In this document: piece by piece, positions 4,730 through 48,280 of the stretch
Position numbering within the stretch: position 1 is the stretch's first letter
Layout of the letters: the number at the start of each line of letters is the position of its first letter
Assembly (NCBI GenBank): GCA_036490385.1
Contig: DASXDX010000034.1
Coordinates: 122,474-186,473 of the forward strand
Reading direction: 5' to 3'
DNA length: 64,000 nt
Source: Terracidiphilus sp.
GTDB lineage: Bacteria; Acidobacteriota; Terriglobia; Terriglobales; Acidobacteriaceae
Program-made: the position numbers and the translations under genes
Notes under the pieces: model-generated
The model's input: only the letters and a program-made list of their open reading frames with translations
Database searches by the model: none
Told to the model about the DNA's origin: nothing

Positions 4730-7135
4730 ATGCGCGTCTTTGCGACACTCTTGCTCAGCCTCTTGTCAGCCCCTGTTCTTAACGCTCAGGCCGGCCCGCA
4801 TCCTGATCCGCAGCACCGCGACTGGCACGCCTCCTGGGTGACCCACCCTGCCGCACCGCTGCGGGAGCCGCTGGTGCTGCACTTCCGGCGGTCGCTTCTG
4901 CTGGCGGCCGCGCCCCAGACCTACATCGTGCGGGTGAGCGCCGATAACCGGTTCATTTTGTGGGTAAACGGCCGGCGCGTCGGCGATGGCCCGGCGCGGG
5001 GCGACCTGGCGCACTGGCGGTATGAGCGTTTCGACCTGGCTCCCTTTCTGCGCGCGGGCACGAATCTTGTGACGGCAACGGTCTGGAACTGGGGCGTTTA
5101 CGCGCCGATCGCGCAGATCAGCGACCGCACGGCCTTTCTCCTGGAGAGTGAGGGCGCGGCAGCCGATTCAATCAGCACGCCGGAGGGTTGGGAGGTCGAG
5201 GTCGAGCGCGGACACCGCCCCCTGGACCGCAGCTCCGTCGATCTGCGCACGTACATGGCCGCGGGACCGGGCGAAGAGCTCGATGCGGCGCAGTACGACT
5301 GGAAATGGCAATCGCCGGACGATGCGAGCGAGGCATGGGCTCCGGCCGCCACGCCGATGCGCGACAGCATTCACCCCGGCGTAAACAAAGCCCACTCGGC
5401 TGACACGACCGGCGACAACAGCTGGGGCCTGGTTCCGGACACGCTGCCGCACATGGAGTACACGCCGGTCAGCGCGGGCGAAGTAGTGCGGATGGATTCG
5501 ATTGCCAGCGAGCAGCCCGGCTTGCGCAAATTTCCAGAGTCTTCCGTCACATTGCCGCCGGGCATTCATGCGCATCTGCTGCTCGACCGCAAAACCCTTA
5601 CCACCGCATATCCCATCCTCGCCGTCTCCGGCGGCAAGGGCTCAAAGATCTGGCTCACCTATTCTGAAGCGCTCTACGACAAGGGGATGCACAAGGGCGA
5701 TCGCGACGAGGTGGGCAATCGCACGGCACACGGGTTGAAAGATTGCTTTTTGCCGGACGGCGGCGCCGATCGCGTCTTCGAGCCGCTCTGGTGGCGGACG
5801 TGGCGTTATCTCGATCTCGACATCACAACCAGCAGCGAGCCATTGCAGCTCGAATCGCTCACCGCCGCATTCACGGCGTATCCGTTTCAGGAAGACGCGC
5901 GTTTTGAATCGAGCGATCCTGACTTAGCGAAGATCTGGGAGATCAGTTGGCGCACGGCCCGGCTCGATGCGCATGAAACCTACATGGACACGCCCTACTA
6001 CGAGCAGCTCCAATACGTCGGCGACACGCGGATTCAGGCGCTGATCTCGTATGCGGTTGCAGGCGACGACCGGCTCGCGCGGCAGGCCCTGGAGGCGTTT
6101 GACGAGTCGCGCATTCCGGACGGGCTGACGCGCAGCCGCTATCCGAGCTCGCTGGCGCAGACGATTCCGACCTTTTCGCTGCTGTGGCTCGGCATGGTGC
6201 ACGACTGGTGGATGTATCGGCCCGATCCGGAGCCGGCGCGTGCTTCGCTTGAAGGAACCAGGGCGGTGCTGCACTGGTTTGCGCGCTACGAGCAGCCCGA
6301 TGGCTTGCTGGCAAAGCTGCCATGGTGGAGCTTCATTGACTGGGTGTCTGCGGGCGAAATTCCGACTTACGACGCCAAGGGCGAGTCGTGCATGACCACT
6401 CTTGAATATCTGGGCGCGCTCGATGACGCCGCCGATCTCGAAAAGGCGCTGGGCGATCCGTTGTTCGCCGGGCGATATCAAGCCCGCGCGGCGCATGTGC
6501 GGAGCGGCCTCTTTCAACAGTGCTGGAATGCGCAGCGCGGATTGCTGGCGGATACGCCGGACCGCAGCAGCTTCAGCCAGCAGGCAAACATTCTGGGCGT
6601 GCTTTACGACGTGATTCCGAAAGACCGGCAGAAGGATGTGCTCCAAAAGATATCGGCCATCGAACCCGGAACCGCGCCGGATGGGGTCCTGAGTGCGTCG
6701 TATTACTTCCGCTTCTATCTCGCGCGGGCGCTGGACCATGCCGGCATGGCAGACCAGTATCTCAGCTCGATTGAGCCGTGGCGCAAGCTGCTGGCCTTGC
6801 ACTTCAGCACCTGGCCTGAGGTTCCCGGCGACACGCGTTCGGACTCGCACGCCTGGAGCGCGCACCCGATCTACGACCTGCTGACGCTGGTGGCGGGCAT
6901 CGAGCCGGCCAGCCCGGGATTTGCGACCGTGCGGATCGCTCCGCATTTGGGATCGCTGCCCGCGTTGACTGCTGATTTTCCGCATCCGCAGGGCACGATC
7001 CATGTGGAGTATCGCCGCGAGAATGGCAAATTGAATGGGCTCGTGACGCTGCCTGGAACACTCACCGGAACCTTTCTTTACGAAGGCAAGGCGTGGCCGC
7101 TGAAGCCCGGCAGGAATCAGATCGAAGCTCGGTAA
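4730..7135 (+). CDS. Secreted glycoside hydrolase, GH78 alpha-L-rhamnosidase-like (six-hairpin catalytic domain)
   Basis: An ATG at 4730 gives the signal peptide MRVFATLLLSLLSAPVLNAQA. The motif MDTPYYEQLQYVGDTR matches the D-x-P-x-x-E...GD pattern of the GH78 catalytic domain. SHAWSAHPIYDL lies near the C-terminus, and a LacI regulator follows. The upstream 67 codons of the ORF look non-coding. Confidence 0.6.
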   Translation: MRVFATLLLSLLSAPVLNAQAGPHPDPQHRDWHASWVTHPAAPLREPLVLHFRRSLLLAAAPQTYIVRVSADNRFILWVNGRRVGDGPARGDLAHWRYERFDLAPFLRAGTNLVTATVWNWGVYAPIAQISDRTAFLLESEGAAADSISTPEGWEVEVERGHRPLDRSSVDLRTYMAAGPGEELDAAQYDWKWQSPDDASEAWAPAATPMRDSIHPGVNKAHSADTTGDNSWGLVPDTLPHMEYTPVSAGEVVRMDSIASEQPGLRKFPESSVTLPPGIHAHLLLDRKTLTTAYPILAVSGGKGSKIWLTYSEALYDKGMHKGDRDEVGNRTAHGLKDCFLPDGGADRVFEPLWWRTWRYLDLDITTSSEPLQLESLTAAFTAYPFQEDARFESSDPDLAKIWEISWRTARLDAHETYMDTPYYEQLQYVGDTRIQALISYAVAGDDRLARQALEAFDESRIPDGLTRSRYPSSLAQTIPTFSLLWLGMVHDWWMYRPDPEPARASLEGTRAVLHWFARYEQPDGLLAKLPWWSFIDWVSAGEIPTYDAKGESCMTTLEYLGALDDAADLEKALGDPLFAGRYQARAAHVRSGLFQQCWNAQRGLLADTPDRSSFSQQANILGVLYDVIPKDRQKDVLQKISAIEPGTAPDGVLSASYYFRFYLARALDHAGMADQYLSSIEPWRKLLALHFSTWPEVPGDTRSDSHAWSAHPIYDLLTLVAGIEPASPGFATVRIAPHLGSLPALTADFPHPQGTIHVEYRRENGKLNGLVTLPGTLTGTFLYEGKAWPLKPGRNQIEAR

Positions 7136-7222
7136 TCGAGACGGTTGCAGTATGCAGGAAAATCGATCCACTTGCCCCTTTCCGTGCTTTCGCGCTCAGG
7201 AGAAACGTGTTACAAATCCAGC

Positions 7223-8302
7223 ATGGCAAAGGGAAAACTAGCTACTCCCCCAGGGCACGTCAACCTGCGGATGCTCGCCGAGCATCTGGAGCTTTCGCAG
7301 ACAACCGTTTCCCTTGTGCTGAACGATTCGCCTTCCGCTAAGTCGATTCCCCAGGAGACGCGCAACCGGGTCACCGAAGCAGCCAAGCGGCTGAATTACC
7401 GGCCCAACTACTTTGCGCGCTCTCTGCGGCAGAGCCGCTCGATGAGCGTGGGCGTGCTTGCGCCTGACTTGAGCGAAGGGTACTTTACGCGCGTGATGAG
7501 CGGCGTGGTGGAAGAGCTGACCGCGGCTCATTACTTCTATTTCACGGCCTGCCATGACTGGAAGCGGGAGTTGATCGAGAAATACCCGCGCATGCTGGTA
7601 GAGCGCGCAGTGGACGGATTTTTGCTGCTGAATACACCGGCGGATCACATCGCCGTCCCGGTGCCGGTGGTGGCCATCTCGGCGCACACCGTAACCGAGA
7701 ATGTGACGAACATTATTCTGGATCACCATCAGGCCGTGCAGCAGGCGCTCGGTCACTTGCATGAGCTGGGTCATCGGAGGGTTGCAGTCCTGCGCGGCCC
7801 GCGCGCGATTCCCGACTCCGAATTCCGCTGGGAAAGCTGCCTCGAGGTAGCGCGGGAGATCGATCTCAAGCTCGATCCGTCCCTGGTCGTCCGCATCGAT
7901 GCTGCCGCGTGGTCGATTAAAACTGGATACCACCCCATGGCCCCGGAGATTGGTTACAAGCCGATGCAGGCGCTGCTCGAGAAGACCCGCGACTTCACCG
8001 CCGTCTTCTGCTTCAACGATATCGCGGCCATCGGCGCCATCCGGGCGCTGAAGGAAGCCGGGCTCAGGGTGCCGGAAGACGTATCGGTCGTGGGATTCGA
8101 CGATATTCTGTCGGCGGCCTACGCGACCCCGTCGCTCACCACGGTGAGGCAGCCGCTAACCGAGATGGGCAAACGCGGAGCGCAGATTCTTCTGGAACGG
8201 ATCGGCAACCGTGACAAGGAGTATCCAACGGAAGTGGTCATGAGCCCGGAACTGGTGGTACGCGAATCAACCTGCCCCGCCCCGGCAAGGCGCCGCGTGT
8301 GA
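7223..8302 (+). CDS. LacI family transcriptional regulator
   Basis: N-terminal HTH (VNLRMLAEHLELSQTTVSLVLND ... ETRNRVTEAAKRLNYRPNYFARSL) followed by a periplasmic-binding-protein-like sugar-binding fold (VPEDVSVVGFDDI). Confidence 0.85.
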   Translation: MAKGKLATPPGHVNLRMLAEHLELSQTTVSLVLNDSPSAKSIPQETRNRVTEAAKRLNYRPNYFARSLRQSRSMSVGVLAPDLSEGYFTRVMSGVVEELTAAHYFYFTACHDWKRELIEKYPRMLVERAVDGFLLLNTPADHIAVPVPVVAISAHTVTENVTNIILDHHQAVQQALGHLHELGHRRVAVLRGPRAIPDSEFRWESCLEVAREIDLKLDPSLVVRIDAAAWSIKTGYHPMAPEIGYKPMQALLEKTRDFTAVFCFNDIAAIGAIRALKEAGLRVPEDVSVVGFDDILSAAYATPSLTTVRQPLTEMGKRGAQILLERIGNRDKEYPTEVVMSPELVVRESTCPAPARRRV

Positions 8303-15166: not shown

Positions 15167-15451
15167 GACAAGGTCAAGGATGAACCATCTTCAATATTGA
15201 AAGCAAGTAAGTTATTGTACTTTTCAAGTACGGCTCTAGCCCTGGATCAGCATAGTGACTGCACGCTGAGCACAAATTAGCGCAGAATTTTGAGCGCCCG
15301 TTCTGTCCCTTCTCACTCACTCTGTACTCCCGGGAAAAGTCCCAGCAGCTTACTCGCGATTGCCACGAATCCTTCTGCCCTTTGATCCCCTTAACCGTCT
15401 TCTTCACCGAATCGAAGTCATCTGCCCGCGTACGGACAACCAATTGGGATT

Positions 15452-15697
15452 TTGTGGGAAAATGAAAACATCCCAAGCCATTTCCCCACCCTGGAGTACC
15501 TCGGAGTGTCAGCAGCTAAACCCCTCTTCGTCCACCGCATCAACGCGGACGGAACGATCGATTCCTTTTGCCGCAAGTGCTTCATTACTGTCGCTTCGTC
15601 CCACTGGGAAGCAGAACTGGAACGTGCCGAGCACAAGCACGAGTGCGATAAATTACAGTTGGCCTATGTGCAGAGCGTTCTCAGTCCGTTGCAATAA
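15452..15697 (+). CDS. Hypothetical small Cys/His protein (start uncertain)
   Basis: This is the only protein-like frame in an AT-richer 760-bp gap: FVHRINADGTIDSFCRKCFITVASSHWEAELERAEHKHECD. The ORF as tracked starts at a TTG, an internal GTG is an alternative, and other frames overlap it. Confidence 0.3.
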   Translation: MWENENIPSHFPTLEYLGVSAAKPLFVHRINADGTIDSFCRKCFITVASSHWEAELERAEHKHECDKLQLAYVQSVLSPLQ

Positions 15698-15931
15698 AAA
15701 CCCGTAAATTACCGATCAGAACACACTGGTTAGTCTAATCGAAGCCGAATACTTCTTTGGCGTTAAGCCCCTTATTTTGCTCGATTTGAAAACGGACAAC
15801 CCTCAGGATACGGGGGCTGCAGGGGTCGATGGCAACGGGTCATGCAGTGAAGGATAAGAGGCTGGAAGACTGAAGCTCAGAGCCCGCCTGCCAGCAGGAA
15901 AAACCCCGAGCCCTACGTCCCTGGTTGCTGC

Positions 15932-42652: not shown

Positions 42653-44266
42653 ATGCTCAGTACCAGCAACGTCTCCATGCGCTACGGCTCGAAGGTGCTC
42701 TTCGAAGACGTCAGTGTCAGCTTTGTTCCCGGCCGCCGCTACGGCCTCACCGGCCCCAACGGCTCCGGCAAATCCACCTTCATGAAGGTCCTCACCGGCG
42801 AGCTCGACGCGCAGAAGGGCACCGTGGTCCGCCCGCGCAAATTCGGCGTGCTGCGCCAGGACCAGTTCGCCTTCGACGCCTATCGCGTCATCGACACCGT
42901 CATCATGGGCAACAAGCCCCTGTGGGCCGCGCTCGAAGAACGCGACCGCATCTATGAGAAGCCCGAGATGACCGACGAAGACGGCATGCGCCTGGGCGAG
43001 CTCGAAGGCGTCATTGGCGACGAGGACGGCTACACCGCCGAGGCCGATGCCGCTATCCTGCTCGACGGCCTCGACATTCCCGAGGAACTCCACCAGCGCA
43101 AAATGGGCGAGTTGCAAGGCGGCCAGAAAGTGCGGGTGCTGCTCGCGCAGGCGCTCTTCGGCAAGCCCGAAGCCCTGCTCCTCGACGAGCCCACCAACTA
43201 TCTCGATCTCGATTCGATCCACTGGCTCCAGGATTTCCTGCTCAACTACGACGGCACGCTGATCGCCATCTCCCACGACCGGCACTTCCTCAACAGCGTC
43301 ACCACGCACACCGCCGACATCGATTATCAGACCATCATCGTCTACACCGGCGGCTACGACGAGATGGTGATGGCCAAGACGCAGATCCGCTCCACGCTCG
43401 AGTCGCAAATCGTCCAGCGCGAAAAGAAGATCGCGCAGCTCAACGACTTCATCGCGCGCTTCGCCGCCGGCACGCGCTCTTCGCAGGTCACCAGCCGCCG
43501 CAAAGAGGTTGAGCGCCTGCAGACCAATGAGCTGGCGCGCTCCAACATTCAGCGCCCATTCATTCGCTTCGACCAGGTGCGCCCCAGCGGCAAGCATGTT
43601 CTGGAGTTCAAGCACATCACCAAGCTCTATGGCGATCTGAAGGTGCTCGACGGCTTCACGGCCAACGTGCTGCGCGGCGAAAAAATCTGTCTCATGGGCC
43701 GCAACGGCGCCGGCAAAACCACGCTGCTCAAAAGCCTGCTCGCGAATTATCCCGGCCTGGCCGACAAGGATTTCATGCTCGACTCAGGCTCCGTCTTCTG
43801 GGGCCACGAGGCGCAGGTCGGCTACTTTCCGCAGGACGTAGGCTCGACGCTGACTGGACCGGGAATGGAGCACGGCCTCACCGTAGCCGAGTGGCTGCAT
43901 CGCTGGAACCCGCAGGCGCATGTCGAAGAAATCCGCGGCATCCTCGGCCAGATGCTGTTCAGCGGCGAGGAAGGCGGCAAGCCGACTAAAGCGCTCTCCG
44001 GCGGCGAACAAGCGCGGCTGGCCTTCTGCAAATTGATCCTCACCAAGCCCAACATCCTCATCTTCGACGAGCCCACGAACCACCTCGACTTAGAAGCCAT
44101 CAACGCGCTCAACATAGCATTGCAGCGGTACGAAGGCACCGCGCTTCTGGTGACTCACGATCACGACCTGATCGACGAAGTAGCCACGCGCCTATGGAAC
44201 TTCAAAGAAGACGGCATAGAAGATTTCCAGGGCCCGTATGCGGAGTGGAAGGGCAAGCACAACTGA
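42653..44266 (+). CDS. ABC-F family ATPase (two ABC cassettes, no TM domain)
   Basis: Cassette 1 has GPNGSGKST, LQGGQKVRVLLAQAL and LLLDEPTNYLD. Cassette 2 has GRNGAGKTT, LSGGEQARLAFCKL and LIFDEPTNHLD. A charged linker lies between them. Confidence 0.9.
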   Translation: MLSTSNVSMRYGSKVLFEDVSVSFVPGRRYGLTGPNGSGKSTFMKVLTGELDAQKGTVVRPRKFGVLRQDQFAFDAYRVIDTVIMGNKPLWAALEERDRIYEKPEMTDEDGMRLGELEGVIGDEDGYTAEADAAILLDGLDIPEELHQRKMGELQGGQKVRVLLAQALFGKPEALLLDEPTNYLDLDSIHWLQDFLLNYDGTLIAISHDRHFLNSVTTHTADIDYQTIIVYTGGYDEMVMAKTQIRSTLESQIVQREKKIAQLNDFIARFAAGTRSSQVTSRRKEVERLQTNELARSNIQRPFIRFDQVRPSGKHVLEFKHITKLYGDLKVLDGFTANVLRGEKICLMGRNGAGKTTLLKSLLANYPGLADKDFMLDSGSVFWGHEAQVGYFPQDVGSTLTGPGMEHGLTVAEWLHRWNPQAHVEEIRGILGQMLFSGEEGGKPTKALSGGEQARLAFCKLILTKPNILIFDEPTNHLDLEAINALNIALQRYEGTALLVTHDHDLIDEVATRLWNFKEDGIEDFQGPYAEWKGKHN

Positions 44267-44364
44267 TTTAGGTATGACGCCTCGGGTTAACGGAAAACTT
44301 TCGCTAGTTCGCGTACATCCGATCCGTATTGGAAGATGGGGTTGAATCGTATATTGTGTTGCGC

Positions 44365-45234
44365 ATGGCTCTTTCTCCATCACAGCGCGTTTCATTAATG
44401 AAGGAGATATCCCAGCGACTTGGTTCCGAGCAATGGTCGCTAATCGACCTGACGCTGAAGCAATTTGCACTCCCTTGGACGGATCAATGGAGCAGCGACA
44501 GCAATTCCTATATTTTGGAGATGATCGCAAAGGCTTCCGACGAAGCATTAATTGAGCTGGCTCAGCATCTCGGGTTCGCGCTTGAAACGTCGGCATCGTC
44601 ACACATTGAGCCTGCATTTTGGCAAAAGGGAATGTTTCGCCTTTTCATTTCGCATCTAGCCGTGCATAAAAAATCTGCGAGCGAGTTGCAGGCCGCCCTT
44701 CTTCAATATGGTATTTCTGGATTCGTCGCTCACAGCGATATTGAACCCACTACTGAGTGGCAGGATCAAATTGAGACAGCCCTGTCGACTTGTGACGCGC
44801 TTGTTGCGCTGCTACACGACAGCTTTCATGAGAGCAAGTGGACAGATCAAGAAATTGGGTTCGCGATGGGCCGTGCTGTCCCAGTCTGCTCGGTCCGCCT
44901 CGGCGAAACGCCCTATGGCTTCATCGGTCGCTTCCAAGCCTTCAATGGGGTCAACAAGCAATCTTCAGACTTGGCACTTGAGCTATTCGAGTTGTTTCGC
45001 AAGAACAAGCAAACCAAAAGAAAGATGGGGGAAGTATTAGTAGGCATATTTGAACAGAGTGGGAGTTTTGCGGAAGCTAGGGCAAGAATTGGATTCCTTG
45101 AAGGGTTGGATACTTGGGAACCGTCATTCGCGAAGCGAATTCGGGCGGCGGCCGAGAGTAACTCGCAGATTGCAAACTCTTATCATGTTCCGCCACGAGT
45201 AGTCAGCCTTGCCAATAAATGGTCAGCGACATAG
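44365..45234 (+). CDS. TIR-domain protein with unassigned N- and C-terminal domains
   Basis: The central segment FRLFISHLAVHKKSASELQAALLQYGISGFVAHSDIEPTTEWQDQIETALSTCDALVALLHDSFHESKWTDQEIGFAMG follows the bacterial TIR pattern: F-I-S-[HY], W-x-x-x-I-x-x-A, a hydrophobic strand, then S-x-W-x-x-x-E. The locus is visibly AT-richer than its flanks. The start is ATG 44365 or TTG 44329. Confidence 0.6.
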   Translation: MALSPSQRVSLMKEISQRLGSEQWSLIDLTLKQFALPWTDQWSSDSNSYILEMIAKASDEALIELAQHLGFALETSASSHIEPAFWQKGMFRLFISHLAVHKKSASELQAALLQYGISGFVAHSDIEPTTEWQDQIETALSTCDALVALLHDSFHESKWTDQEIGFAMGRAVPVCSVRLGETPYGFIGRFQAFNGVNKQSSDLALELFELFRKNKQTKRKMGEVLVGIFEQSGSFAEARARIGFLEGLDTWEPSFAKRIRAAAESNSQIANSYHVPPRVVSLANKWSAT

Positions 45235-45417
45235 CGAAAGGTATCGAATTGGGTGGAAAACATGCCCATCGCCTCACATCTTGGATTTAGGACTGTTCCC
45301 GCTTTCCCCCGCCTTGGAATCTCGCGCCGCGGGCCGACGAACCGACGGCGGGCGGGTGGTCCAGGACTCGCTTCCGAGACCTGGGATGCTTAGATTCAAA
45401 TATGACATAATCATGTC

Positions 45418-45648
45418 ATGGCCGTCCGAACCACTGTCGATATCCCCGAGCCGCTTCATGACCGCCTGCGGGATCGCGCCGAGCGTTCCGGCACTTCGAT
45501 TCGCTCCCTCATCGTCCGGGCTCTCGAAGAGACCTACGCGGAACCCAAGAAAGGCCGCCGCGTGACCGGCCCGCTCATTATTGCCAAAGGCAAGCGCGGT
45601 CCTCGATTCCCGGTGGACGAGACTCCCCATGACCTTGTTATTGATTGA
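45418..45648 (+). CDS. vapB: Ribbon-helix-helix antitoxin (VapB/CopG-like)
   Basis: MAVRTTVDIPEPLHDRLRDRAERSGTSIRSLIVRALEETY has the RHH pattern. It is 76 aa and overlaps the downstream PIN gene by 20 nt. Confidence 0.7.
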   Translation: MAVRTTVDIPEPLHDRLRDRAERSGTSIRSLIVRALEETYAEPKKGRRVTGPLIIAKGKRGPRFPVDETPHDLVID

Positions 45649-46075
45649 CCTCAATGTCTGGCTGGCCCTCTCTATCGATAGGCACGTCCACCACGCAACT
45701 GCGTGGGCATGGCTCAATCGCCTGCCAGACGATTCCAGCCTCATCTTTTCCCGCTATACGCAACTGGGTCTGCTGCGCCTGCTCACCAACACAACCGTGA
45801 TGGGTGAAGCGACACTGACATTGCGCCAGGCCTGGGCCGTTTATGACCGATGGCTCGACGATCCCCGCGTCGAGTTCTACCCCGAGCCGCGCGATGTTGA
45901 CGCCGGATTCAGGCGAGCGACTCAGCCCTTTGCCGCCCAACAAGCCTCGAAGTGGGCAGGAGATTGCTGGCTGCTGGCCTTCGCCGAAGCCGCCAAGGCT
46001 CAGTTAGTCACCTTCGATCAGGCGCTCCATCAATTCGCCCGCAAGCGAGGCCACGCCGCTGTTCTTCCAGCCTGA
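45629..46075 (+). CDS. vapC: PIN-domain toxin (VapC-like ribonuclease)
   Basis: MTLLLIDLNVWLAL carries the first acidic residue of PIN. The segment ...GDCWLLAFAEAAKAQLVTFDQAL carries the distal D...T-x-D. The protein is 148 aa and is coupled to the RHH gene. Confidence 0.75.
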   Translation: MTLLLIDLNVWLALSIDRHVHHATAWAWLNRLPDDSSLIFSRYTQLGLLRLLTNTTVMGEATLTLRQAWAVYDRWLDDPRVEFYPEPRDVDAGFRRATQPFAAQQASKWAGDCWLLAFAEAAKAQLVTFDQALHQFARKRGHAAVLPA

Positions 46076-46318
46076 GCGACCTGGGAAAGCTTCTGATCCA
46101 GTCGGGAATGGCAGGTAGGGATTCATCCCCGCCCGGCTCCGGCGATTTCGCCACGTCAAACGCATTCGCCGGGGTCAGTGCCGCAATCGTTCGCGACCCG
46201 GTCTGTCCAACCATTTTTTGCGGGTTCGCATCGAACGAGATCAAGCACTCGTTTTCTCAATGGGCAGAGACCAGCGTCCTTTGGGCGTGAAGAGTGAACT
46301 TTGGACGCAGCCCAGACC

Positions 46319-48280
46319 ATGAAATCCTTTACCCGCGAATCCGGACCCGTGGCGCAGGCGCCGCGACATCGCCCGGAGCTCGCGGAGCCGGGGCGGCCGT
46401 ATCGGTCTGCGTCGGATTTGGATCCGCGCCAGCTTCAGGAGCTGCTGGCCAAAGCGCCTGCCGTGATCGGGCTGATGAGCGGTCCGGAACACCGATGGAC
46501 CTATGTGAATGAACATCTGGTGCGGGTAGCCGGCCGATCGAGCGCGGCGGAGTGCCTGGGAAAGACTCTGCGCGAGAGCCTTCCCGAGATGGACTCGCAG
46601 GTCTTCCCTGCTTTGCTGGATGAGGTTTTTCAGACGGGAAAGCCTTACGCGGGCTGGGAGGTAAAGGCGAGACTGAACCGGGCGGCCTCCGGTCAGCCGG
46701 AAGAGGGCTATTTCGATCTCGTTTTTCAGCCTGTGCGGAACTCCGAAGGCAAGGTGGAAGCGATTCTGATTCATGCCGTCGAGGTGACGGAGAAGGTAAA
46801 AGCCCGCAAGGCCATTGAGGAAAATGCGGAGCGCCTGCAACTGGCCCATTCCGCGGCCCAAATCGGCACCTGGGAATGGGACCCGTTGATGAAAACACAG
46901 GCTCTCTCCCCGGAGCTGCACCGGATCTTCGGCACGGAAGCTTCCGATCCTGATCATGCAGCCAAATGGGCATCGCGGGTGCATCCAGCCGACTGGGATG
47001 AAGTGCAGCAGAACATGCAAGAGGGACACCGGCGGGGAACCATCGAGTTCGAATACCGTTATCTGCATCCGGATAGCGGACTGCGCTGGCTGTTCTGCAA
47101 AGGCAGCCGTGCTCCCCAGGAGACACGGATGTTCGGCATCGTGCAGGATGTCACGGCTCGCAAGATGGGTGAGGAGGCATCGCAACGCCTGGCCGCGATT
47201 GTCGAATTCTCTGACGACGCAATCATCAGCAAAGACCTCAATGGCACCGTCACGAGCTGGAACCCGTGCGCGCAGCGCATGTTCGGCTATACCGCGGATG
47301 AGATCATCGGCCGTCCGATCACCACCATCATTCCTCCCGAGCTGCACGCGGACGAAACGAGAATCCTCGCCACCATTGCAGCCGGGGAGCGGATCGAGCA
47401 CTTTGAGACGGTGCGGCTGAAAAAGAACGGCGAGACCATCGAGGTCTCGCTCACGGTCTCCCCGGTCAAGGATCAGGACGGCAAGATCGTGGGCGCAGCC
47501 AAGATCGCGCGCGACATAACGCAGCGCAAAAAGGCCGAGCGCGCTTTGCAGACCACCGAAAGACTCGCCTCCGTGGGCCGGCTTGCCGCCACTGTGGCCC
47601 ATGAGATCAACAACCCGCTCGAAGCGGTGACTAATTTGATCTACCTGGCGAAGCATGCCTCCTCTCCGAGCGACGTGAAGAAGTATCTCTCGATTGCCGA
47701 AGAAGAGCTGGAGCGCGTCTCGCATCTGACCAAGCAAACGCTGGGCTTTTACCGCGAGACCAAGGGCGCAACCTACGTCCGGATGGGGGAGCTCGTCCAG
47801 TCCCTGCTTTCGGTGTTCGCTTCGAGGACGCGCAACAGAGGCATCGAGCTCTGCACCGAGATCGACGACGACCCGGAGCTTTACGCGGTGGCGGGAGAGC
47901 TTCGCCAGGTGATCGCGAACCTCATCAGCAACAGCATCGACGCGCTCCAAGCGGGCGGAAAGATCCGCGTCCGGGTCTCTGCCGCCACGCGCTGGATCAG
48001 CGGCCACCCGCGCGGCGTGCGGCTCACTGTGGCCGATACCGGCAGCGGCATTCCGTCTGAGCTGCGCACGCAGCTCTTCGAACCATTTTTCACCACCAAG
48101 AAAGATGTAGGAACCGGTCTCGGTCTGTGGGTATGCAAGAGCATTACCGAGAACCATCACGGCTCAATCCAGGTGAGAAGCGTCGCCACGCCGGGGAAAA
48201 GCTGGACGGCGTTTTCGGTGTTCCTGCCCCTCAACACGCAGGAATCCGCGACCGGGGAACTGGTTCGAAAAGCGGGTTGA
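46319..48280 (+). CDS. Multi-PAS sensor histidine kinase (cytoplasmic)
   Basis: There are three PAS/PAC-like modules (e.g. IVEFSDDAIISKDLNGTVTSWNPCAQRMFGYTADEIIG). H-box ATVAHEINNPLEAV, N-box IANLISNSIDAL and G-boxes DTGSGIP and GTGLGLWVC are present. Confidence 0.85.
   Translation: MKSFTRESGPVAQAPRHRPELAEPGRPYRSASDLDPRQLQELLAKAPAVIGLMSGPEHRWTYVNEHLVRVAGRSSAAECLGKTLRESLPEMDSQVFPALLDEVFQTGKPYAGWEVKARLNRAASGQPEEGYFDLVFQPVRNSEGKVEAILIHAVEVTEKVKARKAIEENAERLQLAHSAAQIGTWEWDPLMKTQALSPELHRIFGTEASDPDHAAKWASRVHPADWDEVQQNMQEGHRRGTIEFEYRYLHPDSGLRWLFCKGSRAPQETRMFGIVQDVTARKMGEEASQRLAAIVEFSDDAIISKDLNGTVTSWNPCAQRMFGYTADEIIGRPITTIIPPELHADETRILATIAAGERIEHFETVRLKKNGETIEVSLTVSPVKDQDGKIVGAAKIARDITQRKKAERALQTTERLASVGRLAATVAHEINNPLEAVTNLIYLAKHASSPSDVKKYLSIAEEELERVSHLTKQTLGFYRETKGATYVRMGELVQSLLSVFASRTRNRGIELCTEIDDDPELYAVAGELRQVIANLISNSIDALQAGGKIRVRVSAATRWISGHPRGVRLTVADTGSGIPSELRTQLFEPFFTTKKDVGTGLGLWVCKSITENHHGSIQVRSVATPGKSWTAFSVFLPLNTQESATGELVRKAG

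Follow-up and report, generated by a model that had tools for sequence, protein, structure and literature searches.

A mobile three-part TIR-domain gene of Terracidiphilus as a candidate single-gene anti-phage system

SpbK of the Bacillus subtilis mobile element ICEBs1 is a single-gene TIR enzyme that cleaves NAD+ (a TIR NADase; PMC12847820, PMC11984713), and binding of the phage portal by its four-helix N-terminal domain (NTD) brings the TIR domains together as an active NADase (PMC12847820). Other single-protein TIR systems defend E. coli (PMC11350192), and AbiJ-type N-terminal domains have been proposed to act as sensors of abortive infection (Abi) effectors and to restrain their toxic domain (Anantharaman et al. 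2013, PMC3710099). Integron cassettes are described as anti-phage biobanks in a passage of PMC13434031 that cites Darracq 2025 and Kieffer 2025, and in the integron cassettes of plant-associated communities, TIR proteins were singled out as one of the main groups of predicted effectors (PMC11089894). Here we analyze a TIR-domain gene at positions 44365 to 45234, plus strand, of a 64,000-nt stretch of DNA from Terracidiphilus sp. of the Acidobacteriota (GenBank assembly GCA_036490385.1, contig DASXDX010000034.1, positions 122,474 to 186,473); the whole of this stretch is referred to as the window.

A comparison with SpbK shows a common plan and some clear disparities. Like SpbK, the window protein is the product of a single gene, its family is carried on mobile elements, and it is modeled as a small N-terminal helical domain of four helices followed by a TIR domain with a Glu of the catalytic type. 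Unlike SpbK, the family possesses an additional, invariant C-terminal bundle of ~75 aa, has a different and far wider phyletic spread and occurs in integron cassettes. Searches with the family profile did not retrieve SpbK at E<=1, and no sequence or fold similarity between the two proteins was detected outside the TIR domain. By analogy, the window protein would work most like SpbK, to which it appears not to be homologous beyond the TIR core. The explanation we prefer as a whole is that the gene encodes a three-part protein, is a self-sufficient mobile unit and serves as an SpbK-type single-gene abortive-infection defense, which we judge to be, on balance, probable; the domain identity and the mobility of the window gene, taken by themselves, we hold with high confidence.

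The TIR gene and the parts of its protein

The longest frame at this locus in the window's list of open reading frames (ORFs) extends from 44329 to 45234 (301 aa, TTG start), and translation from the ATG at 44365 gives 289 aa. This ATG is taken as the true start because the N-terminus M-x-L-S/T-P-S-Q-R is kept across 31 homologs, with conservation beginning at ATG 44365 in an alignment with 30 homologs; in the integron cassette at locus L036 (loci fetched for comparison carry L numbers, related proteins P numbers), the ORF starts at the homologous Met, 8 nt past an attC site. An AlphaFold2 (AF2) model built on the family alignment, with a mean predicted local distance difference test score (pLDDT) of 83, divides the chain into four parts (residues 1-70, 71-88, 89-214 and 215-289). 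The encoded protein is predicted to be cytoplasmic and to consist of a small four-helix N-domain, a TIR domain equipped for catalysis and a C-terminal bundle. The gene as delimited here is a complete functional and mobile unit, with the following features:

44365..45234, plus strand: TIR-family gene, 289 aa plus stop (ORF list, full-length conservation, TIR_2 match, solo cassette in L036)
44365..44574, plus strand: N-terminal four-helix domain, residues 1-70, unassigned (AF2 helices 5-20, 24-33, 46-54 and 59-68, pLDDT ~90)
44575..44628, plus strand: linker, residues 71-88 (pLDDT <50 at residues 75-82; ends in E-P-x-F-W-x-x-G-M)
44629..45006, plus strand: TIR domain, residues 89-214 (Pfam TIR_2, AF2 strands, Foldseek matches)
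44851..44853, plus strand: codon for E163, putative catalytic Glu of W159-T-D-Q-E163 (invariant in 31 sequences)
45007..45231, plus strand: C-terminal helical bundle, residues 215-289, unassigned (AF2 helices 218-230, 235-246, 253-265 and 275-287, pLDDT ~90)

An earlier reading of this DNA from its letters alone (the sequence-only reading) had recognized a TIR domain with a Glu at the catalytic position, on the strength of a central peptide that it quoted correctly, and the searches bear this out. Pfam TIR_2 (PF13676) matches residues 94-194 at 52.4 bits (E=9e-14, cutoff 28), and Pfam TIR (PF01582) remains below its threshold. Residues 89-214 are modeled as a five-stranded alpha/beta core with the TIR fold (strands 91-96, 117-121, 145-149, 174-178 and 191-194, with helices between them), for which Foldseek searches of the PDB return SARM1, BtpA/TcpB, RRS1, AbTir, BtTir, the TIR-APAZ protein of SPARTA, EcThsB/ThsB and TIR-STING. 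Both W159 and E163 of the W-x-x-x-E motif are invariant in 31 sequences. The family profile has only marginal matches to PDB sequences (E>=0.13), and in each of these E163 aligns on the catalytic Glu of BtTir (7uxr), TcpB (4lzp, 4c7m) or BcThsB (8fz9). As judged from its sequence, the window protein is a member of the TIR superfamily that carries the catalytic hallmarks. It resembles AbTir, BtTir and TcpB/BtpA in fold, in the F-I-S-H-type first strand and in the W-x-x-x-E motif, and differs from them in that the similarity is marginal at the same E>=0.13 and in that these proteins possess N-terminal coiled coils and no C-terminal bundle.

Of the competing explanations, the one that survives best is that of a single-gene defense enzyme whose TIR- or nucleoside deoxyribosyltransferase (NDT)-like domain acts on a substrate other than NAD+, either removing bases from nucleotides like MilB or DNPH1 or degrading nucleic acid. 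The Foldseek scores to the CMP N-glycosidase MilB and to the N-glycosidase DNPH1 are on a par with those to TIR NADases, the top BFVD matches are nucleoside 2-deoxyribosyltransferases, and a weak match to Pfam Nuc_deoxyrib_tr (PF05014) is present at 18.6 bits, a name that JGI also gives to several homologs. However, this match is under its cutoff of 28.8, which led us to reject an assignment as a nucleoside 2-deoxyribosyltransferase, whereas TIR_2 scores far higher (52 bits) and above cutoff, and the F-I-S-H strand and W-x-x-x-E motif are TIR hallmarks. We therefore regard this alternative as unlikely, and in the SpbK-type explanation NAD+ would be the substrate, by analogy with the TIR NADases.

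Several other TIR-containing systems were considered and rejected. The type XII retron model, in which a reverse transcriptase (RT) accompanies the TIR domain, scores 39.7 bits against a cutoff of 600 (NF042941), over the TIR part only, and Pfam detects no RT domain. A TIR effector of the CBASS, Pycsar or STING kind is not indicated, as Pfam detects no SAVED, STING or cNMP-binding sensor domain, SAVED_TIR matches the TIR core only, and no cyclase is found as a neighbor. In the case of SPARTA, only the TIR part aligns structurally, and no prokaryotic Argonaute (pAgo) is present in the window or at the other loci.

The two flanking regions had been described as belonging to no family, and they continue to resist assignment: neither has a match in Pfam, NCBIfam, PHROGs or PDB sequence profiles, and the N-domain fold finds nothing significant in the PDB by Foldseek (best E-value 1.2). 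The C-terminal region had been estimated at ~100 aa; the extra domain is real, but its size is ~75 aa, as the TIR core of the AF2 model runs to residue 214 and the longer region therefore took in the last TIR helix. In the model this bundle has four to five helices. A SAM-like N-domain, an idea prompted by 230-250-column Foldseek alignments to full-length SARM1, was rejected when the isolated N-domain gave no SAM match, and an internal duplication giving rise to both terminal domains was ruled out (hhalign probability 0.1%).

A profile search found residues ~78-289, comprising the linker motif, the TIR domain and the C-terminal bundle, behind other N-termini in related proteins. In the family alignment, the linker motif E-P-x-F-W-x-x-G-M is invariant at P83, F85, W86 and M90. 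The alternative N-termini include AbiJ_NTD3 (P0204), a response-regulator receiver (P0150), a common ~120-aa YDNW-motif domain and at least three types without a Pfam match. In P0150 (358 aa) the receiver is fused to the TIR and C-terminal module, and P0204 (472 aa) carries, in order, AbiJ_NTD3, the YDNW domain and the TIR and C-terminal module. A distant branch of 354-379 aa (L069, L071, L072, L073, L074, L078 and L084; e.g., L071 9593-10657) joins a ~120-aa N-domain with the motif Y-D-N-W-[ND]-G-G-T-Y to the same module, and the YDNW-type N-domain is present in every member sited between hsdS and hsdR of type I restriction-modification (R-M) operons. The HsdR protein of L071 has a C-terminal Peptidase_S24 domain.

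The C-terminal bundle is kept in all of these N-terminal variants and is thus the constant partner of this TIR clade; it probably has a role in self-assembly or autoinhibition, and by analogy the N-domain would be a sensor or regulatory module. The bundle weakly matches (14-18 bits) the C-terminal ends of PADLOC single-gene defense candidates in four proteins, of which three match PDC-S34, over identical profile positions, and P0266 matches PD-T7-3; the matching stretches are residues 212-270 of the window protein, 273-326 of P0245, 397-456 of P0204 and 253-338 of P0266. These matches hint that the C-terminal module may be common to other defense proteins. The family shares with the AbiJ-NTD effectors the principle of a variable sensor-type N-domain on a constant toxic enzyme, to the point that P0204 carries AbiJ_NTD3 itself, and is unlike them in that the window N-domain is not an AbiJ-NTD and the effector is a TIR domain with its C-terminal bundle rather than HEPN. 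PrrC/RloC-type abortive-infection genes are embedded in R-M systems, with PrrC found inside a type I R-M operon. The position of the distant branch between hsdS and hsdR is similar to that of PrrC, but the branch has another enzyme and another N-domain (of the YDNW[ND]GGTY type), and the window gene has no linkage to R-M.

Family spread and movement as a single gene

The sequence-only reading had regarded the gene as an orphan, whereas it belongs to a very large family with full-length conservation. Among 5.8 billion proteins searched, 1372 clusters at 90% identity were found, the best 120 of which are all ~280-300 aa long, with 95-100% query cover and 61-83% identity, and when 1.84 billion representatives (50% identity) were searched exhaustively with the profile, 1356 clusters had E<=1e-30. 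In data with one genome per species, the family is present in ~85 species, a lower bound obtained from two peptide patterns, which are distributed over more than 10 phyla and belong mostly to the Acidobacteriota. The other hosts are Gamma-, Beta- and Alphaproteobacteria, Desulfobacterota, Verrucomicrobiota, Planctomycetota, Gemmatimonadota, Latescibacterota, Bacteroidota, Actinomycetota, Campylobacterota and one metagenome-assembled genome (MAG) of Sericytochromatia. Identity between phyla is ~60%, and the hosts are mostly free-living bacteria of soil, peat and sediment. A full-length three-domain homolog with 37% identity (WP_086540592.1) is found on conjugative IncFIA plasmids of Klebsiella pneumoniae from human isolates; on pKpVSI78_2 (NZ_CP118040.1; L095 6989-7921) it lies ~1 kb downstream of IS26, in a stretch with two IS26 copies. 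Complete E. coli genomes, searched for a link between the family and the tested TIR-I to TIR-IX systems, contain no match, and a phage origin was rejected, as no full-length homolog is present in 50,697 phage records or in BFVD. A literature search found no paper characterizing this TIR family, and no curated model in PADLOC 2023 or NCBIfam 2026 claims the protein.

Of the 79 species-level loci, at least five or six have the gene as an integron cassette, and three more (L017, L027 and L030) may do so. The attC sites were defined as an imperfect palindrome R''-L''...L'-R' that ends in GTTRRRY at the 3' end of the ORF. The flanks show an inverse core G-Y-C-T-A-A-C over the TAA stop, inner arms that pair but contain bulged bases, GTTAGGC or GTTAGAC as the core, and a second core a few nt before the start codon. 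Fold-based detection placed sites at gene boundaries in L015, L017, L028, L031, L036 (on both sides) and L046. A covariance model, R1, built from eight attC sites (60 positions, 16 pairs) scores 57-81 bits in L015, L028, L031, L036 and L046; it recovered sites outside its seed in L036 (four, two of them cut by contig ends), L046 (two) and L028 (one), and it finds a weak site exactly at the TIR stop codon in L058. The arrays contain eight sites in L036, three in L046 and two in L028. Locus L036 is a scaffold of the cultured isolate Novilysobacter erysipheiresistens RS-LYSO-3, in which the TIR ORF (1900-2772) is the sole occupant of a 934-bp cassette. Given the attC flanks and a cassette in L036 that holds nothing else, the ORF alone appears to be the unit moved by integron integrases in these loci. 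No IntI was detected within the fetched flanks, in which no search aimed at IntI was made.

In L036, L028, L031, L015 and L046, the family matches the pattern of anti-phage integron cassettes, being small, single-ORF, promoterless and attC-bounded, and to our knowledge no member of the family is among the anti-phage cassettes tested. Unlike these, the window copy lies outside any integron; its identification as a cassette was rejected, as no attC site was found by R1 with filters off (the best match, at 13 bits, is inside the kinase gene), by a motif scan or by a fold scan. Two further observations concern individual loci. At L015 (10871-10928 and downstream, on the same contig as L004) the TIR cassette is followed by GmrSD_N, HEPN (RiboL-PSP-like) and Y1 transposase genes and, as no integrase occurs within 8 kb, it appears to be a lone cassette in a small defense cluster. 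At L019 a 42-nt direct repeat with a GC-rich hairpin (~5088-5129 and ~6013-6054, 93% identical) stands on both sides of the TIR gene; it is not recognized by the attC model and could be another kind of recombination site or a REP-like element.

Neighboring genes point to the same independence. When ORFs within 5 kb of the TIR gene were clustered across the 79 loci, no neighbor cluster was common to full-length members beyond near-identical genomes, and conserved non-coding flanks were likewise absent beyond near-identical genomes. A scan of 149 flanking proteins from the 49 full-length loci found each Pfam or PADLOC family at most two times. Housekeeping neighbors include cysG, recQ/smc and a dehydratase gene, and the defense or mobile neighbors are DpnII-MboI, GmrSD_N with HEPN, type I and type III R-M, NucC, PD-Lambda-2 and an integrase with HTH_17. 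Since no neighbor is conserved in the 49 loci, and since the VapBC toxin-antitoxin pair that adjoins the gene in the window is not found with it at any other fetched locus, the gene is a single-gene unit that is self-sufficient and moves horizontally.

This independence bears on a second alternative, in which, as in Thoeris, the TIR product would be a messenger (a cADPR isomer or one of the His-ADPR type) that acts on an effector whose gene lies elsewhere in the genome. Messenger-making TIR domains exist, the window protein shares with ThsB of Thoeris types I-III a TIR_2-type domain, and the best PADLOC and NCBIfam matches are ThsB and ThcB4 models, all at the domain level. At the family level these models failed: NF058526 ThcB4 reaches 39.7 bits against a cutoff of 220, and PADLOC ThsB at most 28 bits, over the TIR core only. 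Unlike ThsB, the window protein has additional N- and C-terminal domains and its gene no linked ThsA-type effector, as no such partner (SIR2, SLOG, Macro or TM) adjoins the gene at the 49 loci or in the window. Across the other 51 window ORFs, the sole PADLOC match at E<=1e-15 is a generic ABC-ATPase model, so that, as the sequence-only reading had stated, the window holds no ThsA, SIR2, STING, CBASS or pAgo partner. Moreover, a gene that travels alone across phyla as a 934-bp cassette cannot depend on a resident partner. A Thoeris-like signal generator is thus quite improbable, and the reading favored by the evidence is the one raised earlier of a single-gene TIR effector with built-in sensor domains.

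Slightly less probable still is an effector aimed at a host or at other bacteria, as put forward for plant-microbiome TIR cassettes and for virulence factors of the TcpB/BtpA type. BtpA/TcpB is among the structural matches, and others have read TIR cassettes as host-directed effectors (PMC11089894), a point that also counts against the SpbK-type explanation. On the other side, the hosts are mostly free-living and belong to many phyla, no secretion-system gene recurs nearby in the flank scans, and the AbiJ_NTD3 and receiver fusions, together with the embedding in type I R-M operons, point to a role in intracellular conflict.

The slot between the ABC-F and PAS kinase genes

The window copy occupies a slot between two housekeeping-type genes, with the following features around it:

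42659..44266, plus strand: ABC-F ATPase gene, left flank (Pfam ABC_tran twice, ABC_tran_Xtn)
44265..46300, no strand: variable hotspot, from the ABC-F stop codon to the start of the PAS kinase gene (comparison with L092, L093 and L094)
44267..~45290, no strand: low-GC segment (~0.50), TIR gene plus ~55 nt only (composition profile)
45418..45648, plus strand: VapB-like ribbon-helix-helix (RHH) antitoxin gene, independent neighbor (weak RHH matches, host-like GC)
45629..46075, plus strand: VapC PIN toxin gene, independent neighbor (TIGR00028 102 bits, cutoff 73.6; PIN)
46301..48280, plus strand: PAS/HisKA/HATPase sensor kinase gene, right flank (Pfam; ortholog in the same relative position in L092)

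The AT-richness of this slot had been judged by eye, and computed values agree with it for the TIR gene: its GC content of 0.50, compared with a window mean of 0.615 (sd 0.028), is the minimum of all 870-nt windows in the 64 kb, and no other of the 56 called ORFs has a third-position GC (GC3) as low as its 0.53, the typical value for real genes being ~0.75. The GC content falls from 0.60-0.65 to ~0.50 between ~44200 and ~45300. This low-GC segment takes in the TIR gene plus ~55 nt, but not the VapBC pair, which is at host GC (~0.60), so that only the TIR gene is compositionally foreign. The same tendency is seen in 41 of 45 loci with enough flank, in which the TIR gene is AT-richer than its surroundings (median -5.3 points, Wilcoxon p=1.8e-7). 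The second-lowest GC in the window (~0.52) is in a 760-nt gap at 15170-15930, between a quinone-oxidoreductase-like and a glycosyltransferase-like gene, in which there is no convincing ORF and no Rfam match at the gathering threshold.

Relatives with ABC-F orthologs at 90-95% identity are numerous, and in three close ones (L092, L093 and L094) the TIR gene is missing from this site. In all three the DNA homology to the window stops with the first base (44264) of the ABC-F stop codon. Locus L092 (ABC-F 95% identical) has the same ABC-F and PAS kinase flanks with three other genes between them (6021-8165; 120, 330 and 121 aa), none with a PADLOC match or a Pfam match on record; the slot of L093 (7600-11600) contains a GmrSD_N/NsnA-like gene, two genes without a Pfam match on record and a ParE/RHH pair; and L094 has unrelated genes after ABC-F. 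As the relatives share ABC-F, lose homology at its stop and carry different cargo, the gap is a hotspot in which genes are swapped in and out.

The TIR gene appears to have been inserted in this hotspot directly after the ABC-F stop codon and separately from VapBC. The vapB and vapC ORFs overlap at 45629-45648, and as a type II toxin-antitoxin pair they are clear in the PIN toxin and weak in RHH. Locus L092 lacks both vapBC and the TIR gene, yet its intergenic region retains a 62-nt remnant of the vapC 3' end (window 46017-46078, L092 7548-7609, 81% identity). This suggests that vapBC was once present in L092, and the persistence of the remnant suggests that VapBC is the older resident and the TIR gene a later arrival. 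The palindrome ATGACAT-AATC-ATGTCAT at 45402-45419 overlaps the vapB start codon and may be a VapB operator.

Loci L096 and L097 contain the TIR homolog closest to that of the window (83% aa identity). The DNA that they have in common with the window extends from 44162 as far as the TIR stop codon and includes a frameshifted remnant of the last 34 ABC-F codons (L096 573-678, L097 150-252), with no ABC-F homology further upstream. This remnant is the footprint of an ABC-F-to-TIR junction that was relocated as a block, and recombination that takes flanking DNA along is a further way in which the TIR gene moves in this lineage. In the next-closest relative on a long contig (78% identity), the gene is at a different insertion site, between recQ and smc. 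Two repeats around the window copy were examined as possible insertion marks and rejected. A 20-nt inverted repeat around the ORF (44293-44312 and 45226-45245) is absent from most other loci, and shuffles score comparably. The 8-nt direct repeat GATTTAGG (44264-44271 and 45284-45291) stands at both ends of the low-GC segment, its first copy overlapping the ABC-F stop codon, with a rough chance expectation of ~0.15; because it is the TIR stop codon, and not 45291, that bounds the block in common with L096, this repeat is probably due to chance rather than an insertion scar.

The sequence-only reading had taken the TIR gene and the RHH/PIN pair for one acquired islet whose members might work together, and a selfish addiction or toxin gene of this kind has their adjacency in the window in its favor, along with the frequency of toxin-antitoxin pairs in hotspots and cassette arrays, but it is very improbable: by tblastn neither VapB nor VapC has a homolog at any other fetched TIR locus, no neighbor recurs (at most 2 of 149), the GC contents differ (0.50 vs ~0.60), L096 shares window DNA only up to the TIR stop codon, and the VapC remnant is in L092, which lacks the TIR gene, so that the two have independent histories and look like separate acquisitions in a variable hotspot.

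Proposed mechanism and significance

By analogy with SpbK, with AbiJ-type architectures and with the single-protein TIR systems of E. coli, we propose that the protein would be held inactive as a monomer or dimer until the N-domain recognizes an oligomeric phage component or another cue of infection. The TIR domains would then cluster head-to-tail and complete an active site around E163, and hydrolysis of NAD+ would leave an infected cell that no longer supports phage growth, following the course modeled on SpbK, in which a sensor NTD binds an oligomeric phage protein and TIR clustering leads to NAD+ loss and aborted infection. We consider this abortive-infection NADase mechanism to be about evenly poised between right and wrong. 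The nature of the trigger, the roles of the N- and C-domains and a defense phenotype are all suggested by the same analogies, and association with defense is seen in the fusion of the TIR and C-terminal module to AbiJ_NTD3 and to a receiver, in its embedding in type I R-M, and in the defense genes that adjoin the TIR gene at some loci, where it lies in defense islands.

A number of observations weigh against the SpbK-type explanation. No similarity was detected between the N-domain and the SpbK NTD or any other sensor known, and PADLOC and NCBIfam give only sub-threshold matches at the level of the TIR domain. The fold search cannot tell TIR domains from N-glycosidases of the MilB/DNPH1 type, and the substrate could therefore be another nucleotide. 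Many of the loci have housekeeping genes on their flanks, the window, recQ/smc and cysG among them, so that an enrichment of the family in defense islands is at most a possibility. The window copy itself has neither an attC site nor a recognizable promoter.

Taking these points into account, we tentatively propose, at somewhat less than even likelihood, that the window gene is the founding example of a very widespread and as yet unnamed single-gene anti-phage system, in which a TIR NADase is locked to a new C-terminal module, is fitted with interchangeable N-terminal sensors (the four-helix type of the window, the YDNW[ND]GGTY type of type I R-M operons, AbiJ_NTD3 or a receiver), has spread between phyla largely as an integron cassette and has reached conjugative plasmids of Klebsiella. 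The TIR defense design itself is known, and another candidate TIR defense gene would not astonish a specialist; the interest lies in the size of the family, its conservation across phyla, its life as a cassette, its swappable sensors and its two unassignable domains. This makes the gene a good and easily testable candidate.

If the proposed function holds, one 870-bp gene would be a complete immune device small enough to fit an integron cassette, with a range from peat Acidobacteriota to clinical Klebsiella plasmids. The family would provide a natural series of sensor swaps on one effector module, and thus a way to learn how TIR enzymes are switched, as well as two compact helical domains without known relatives. 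It would also caution against treating the TIR cassettes of plant microbiomes as host-directed effectors by default, and would offer a concrete case of integrons and intergenic hotspots circulating anti-phage genes.

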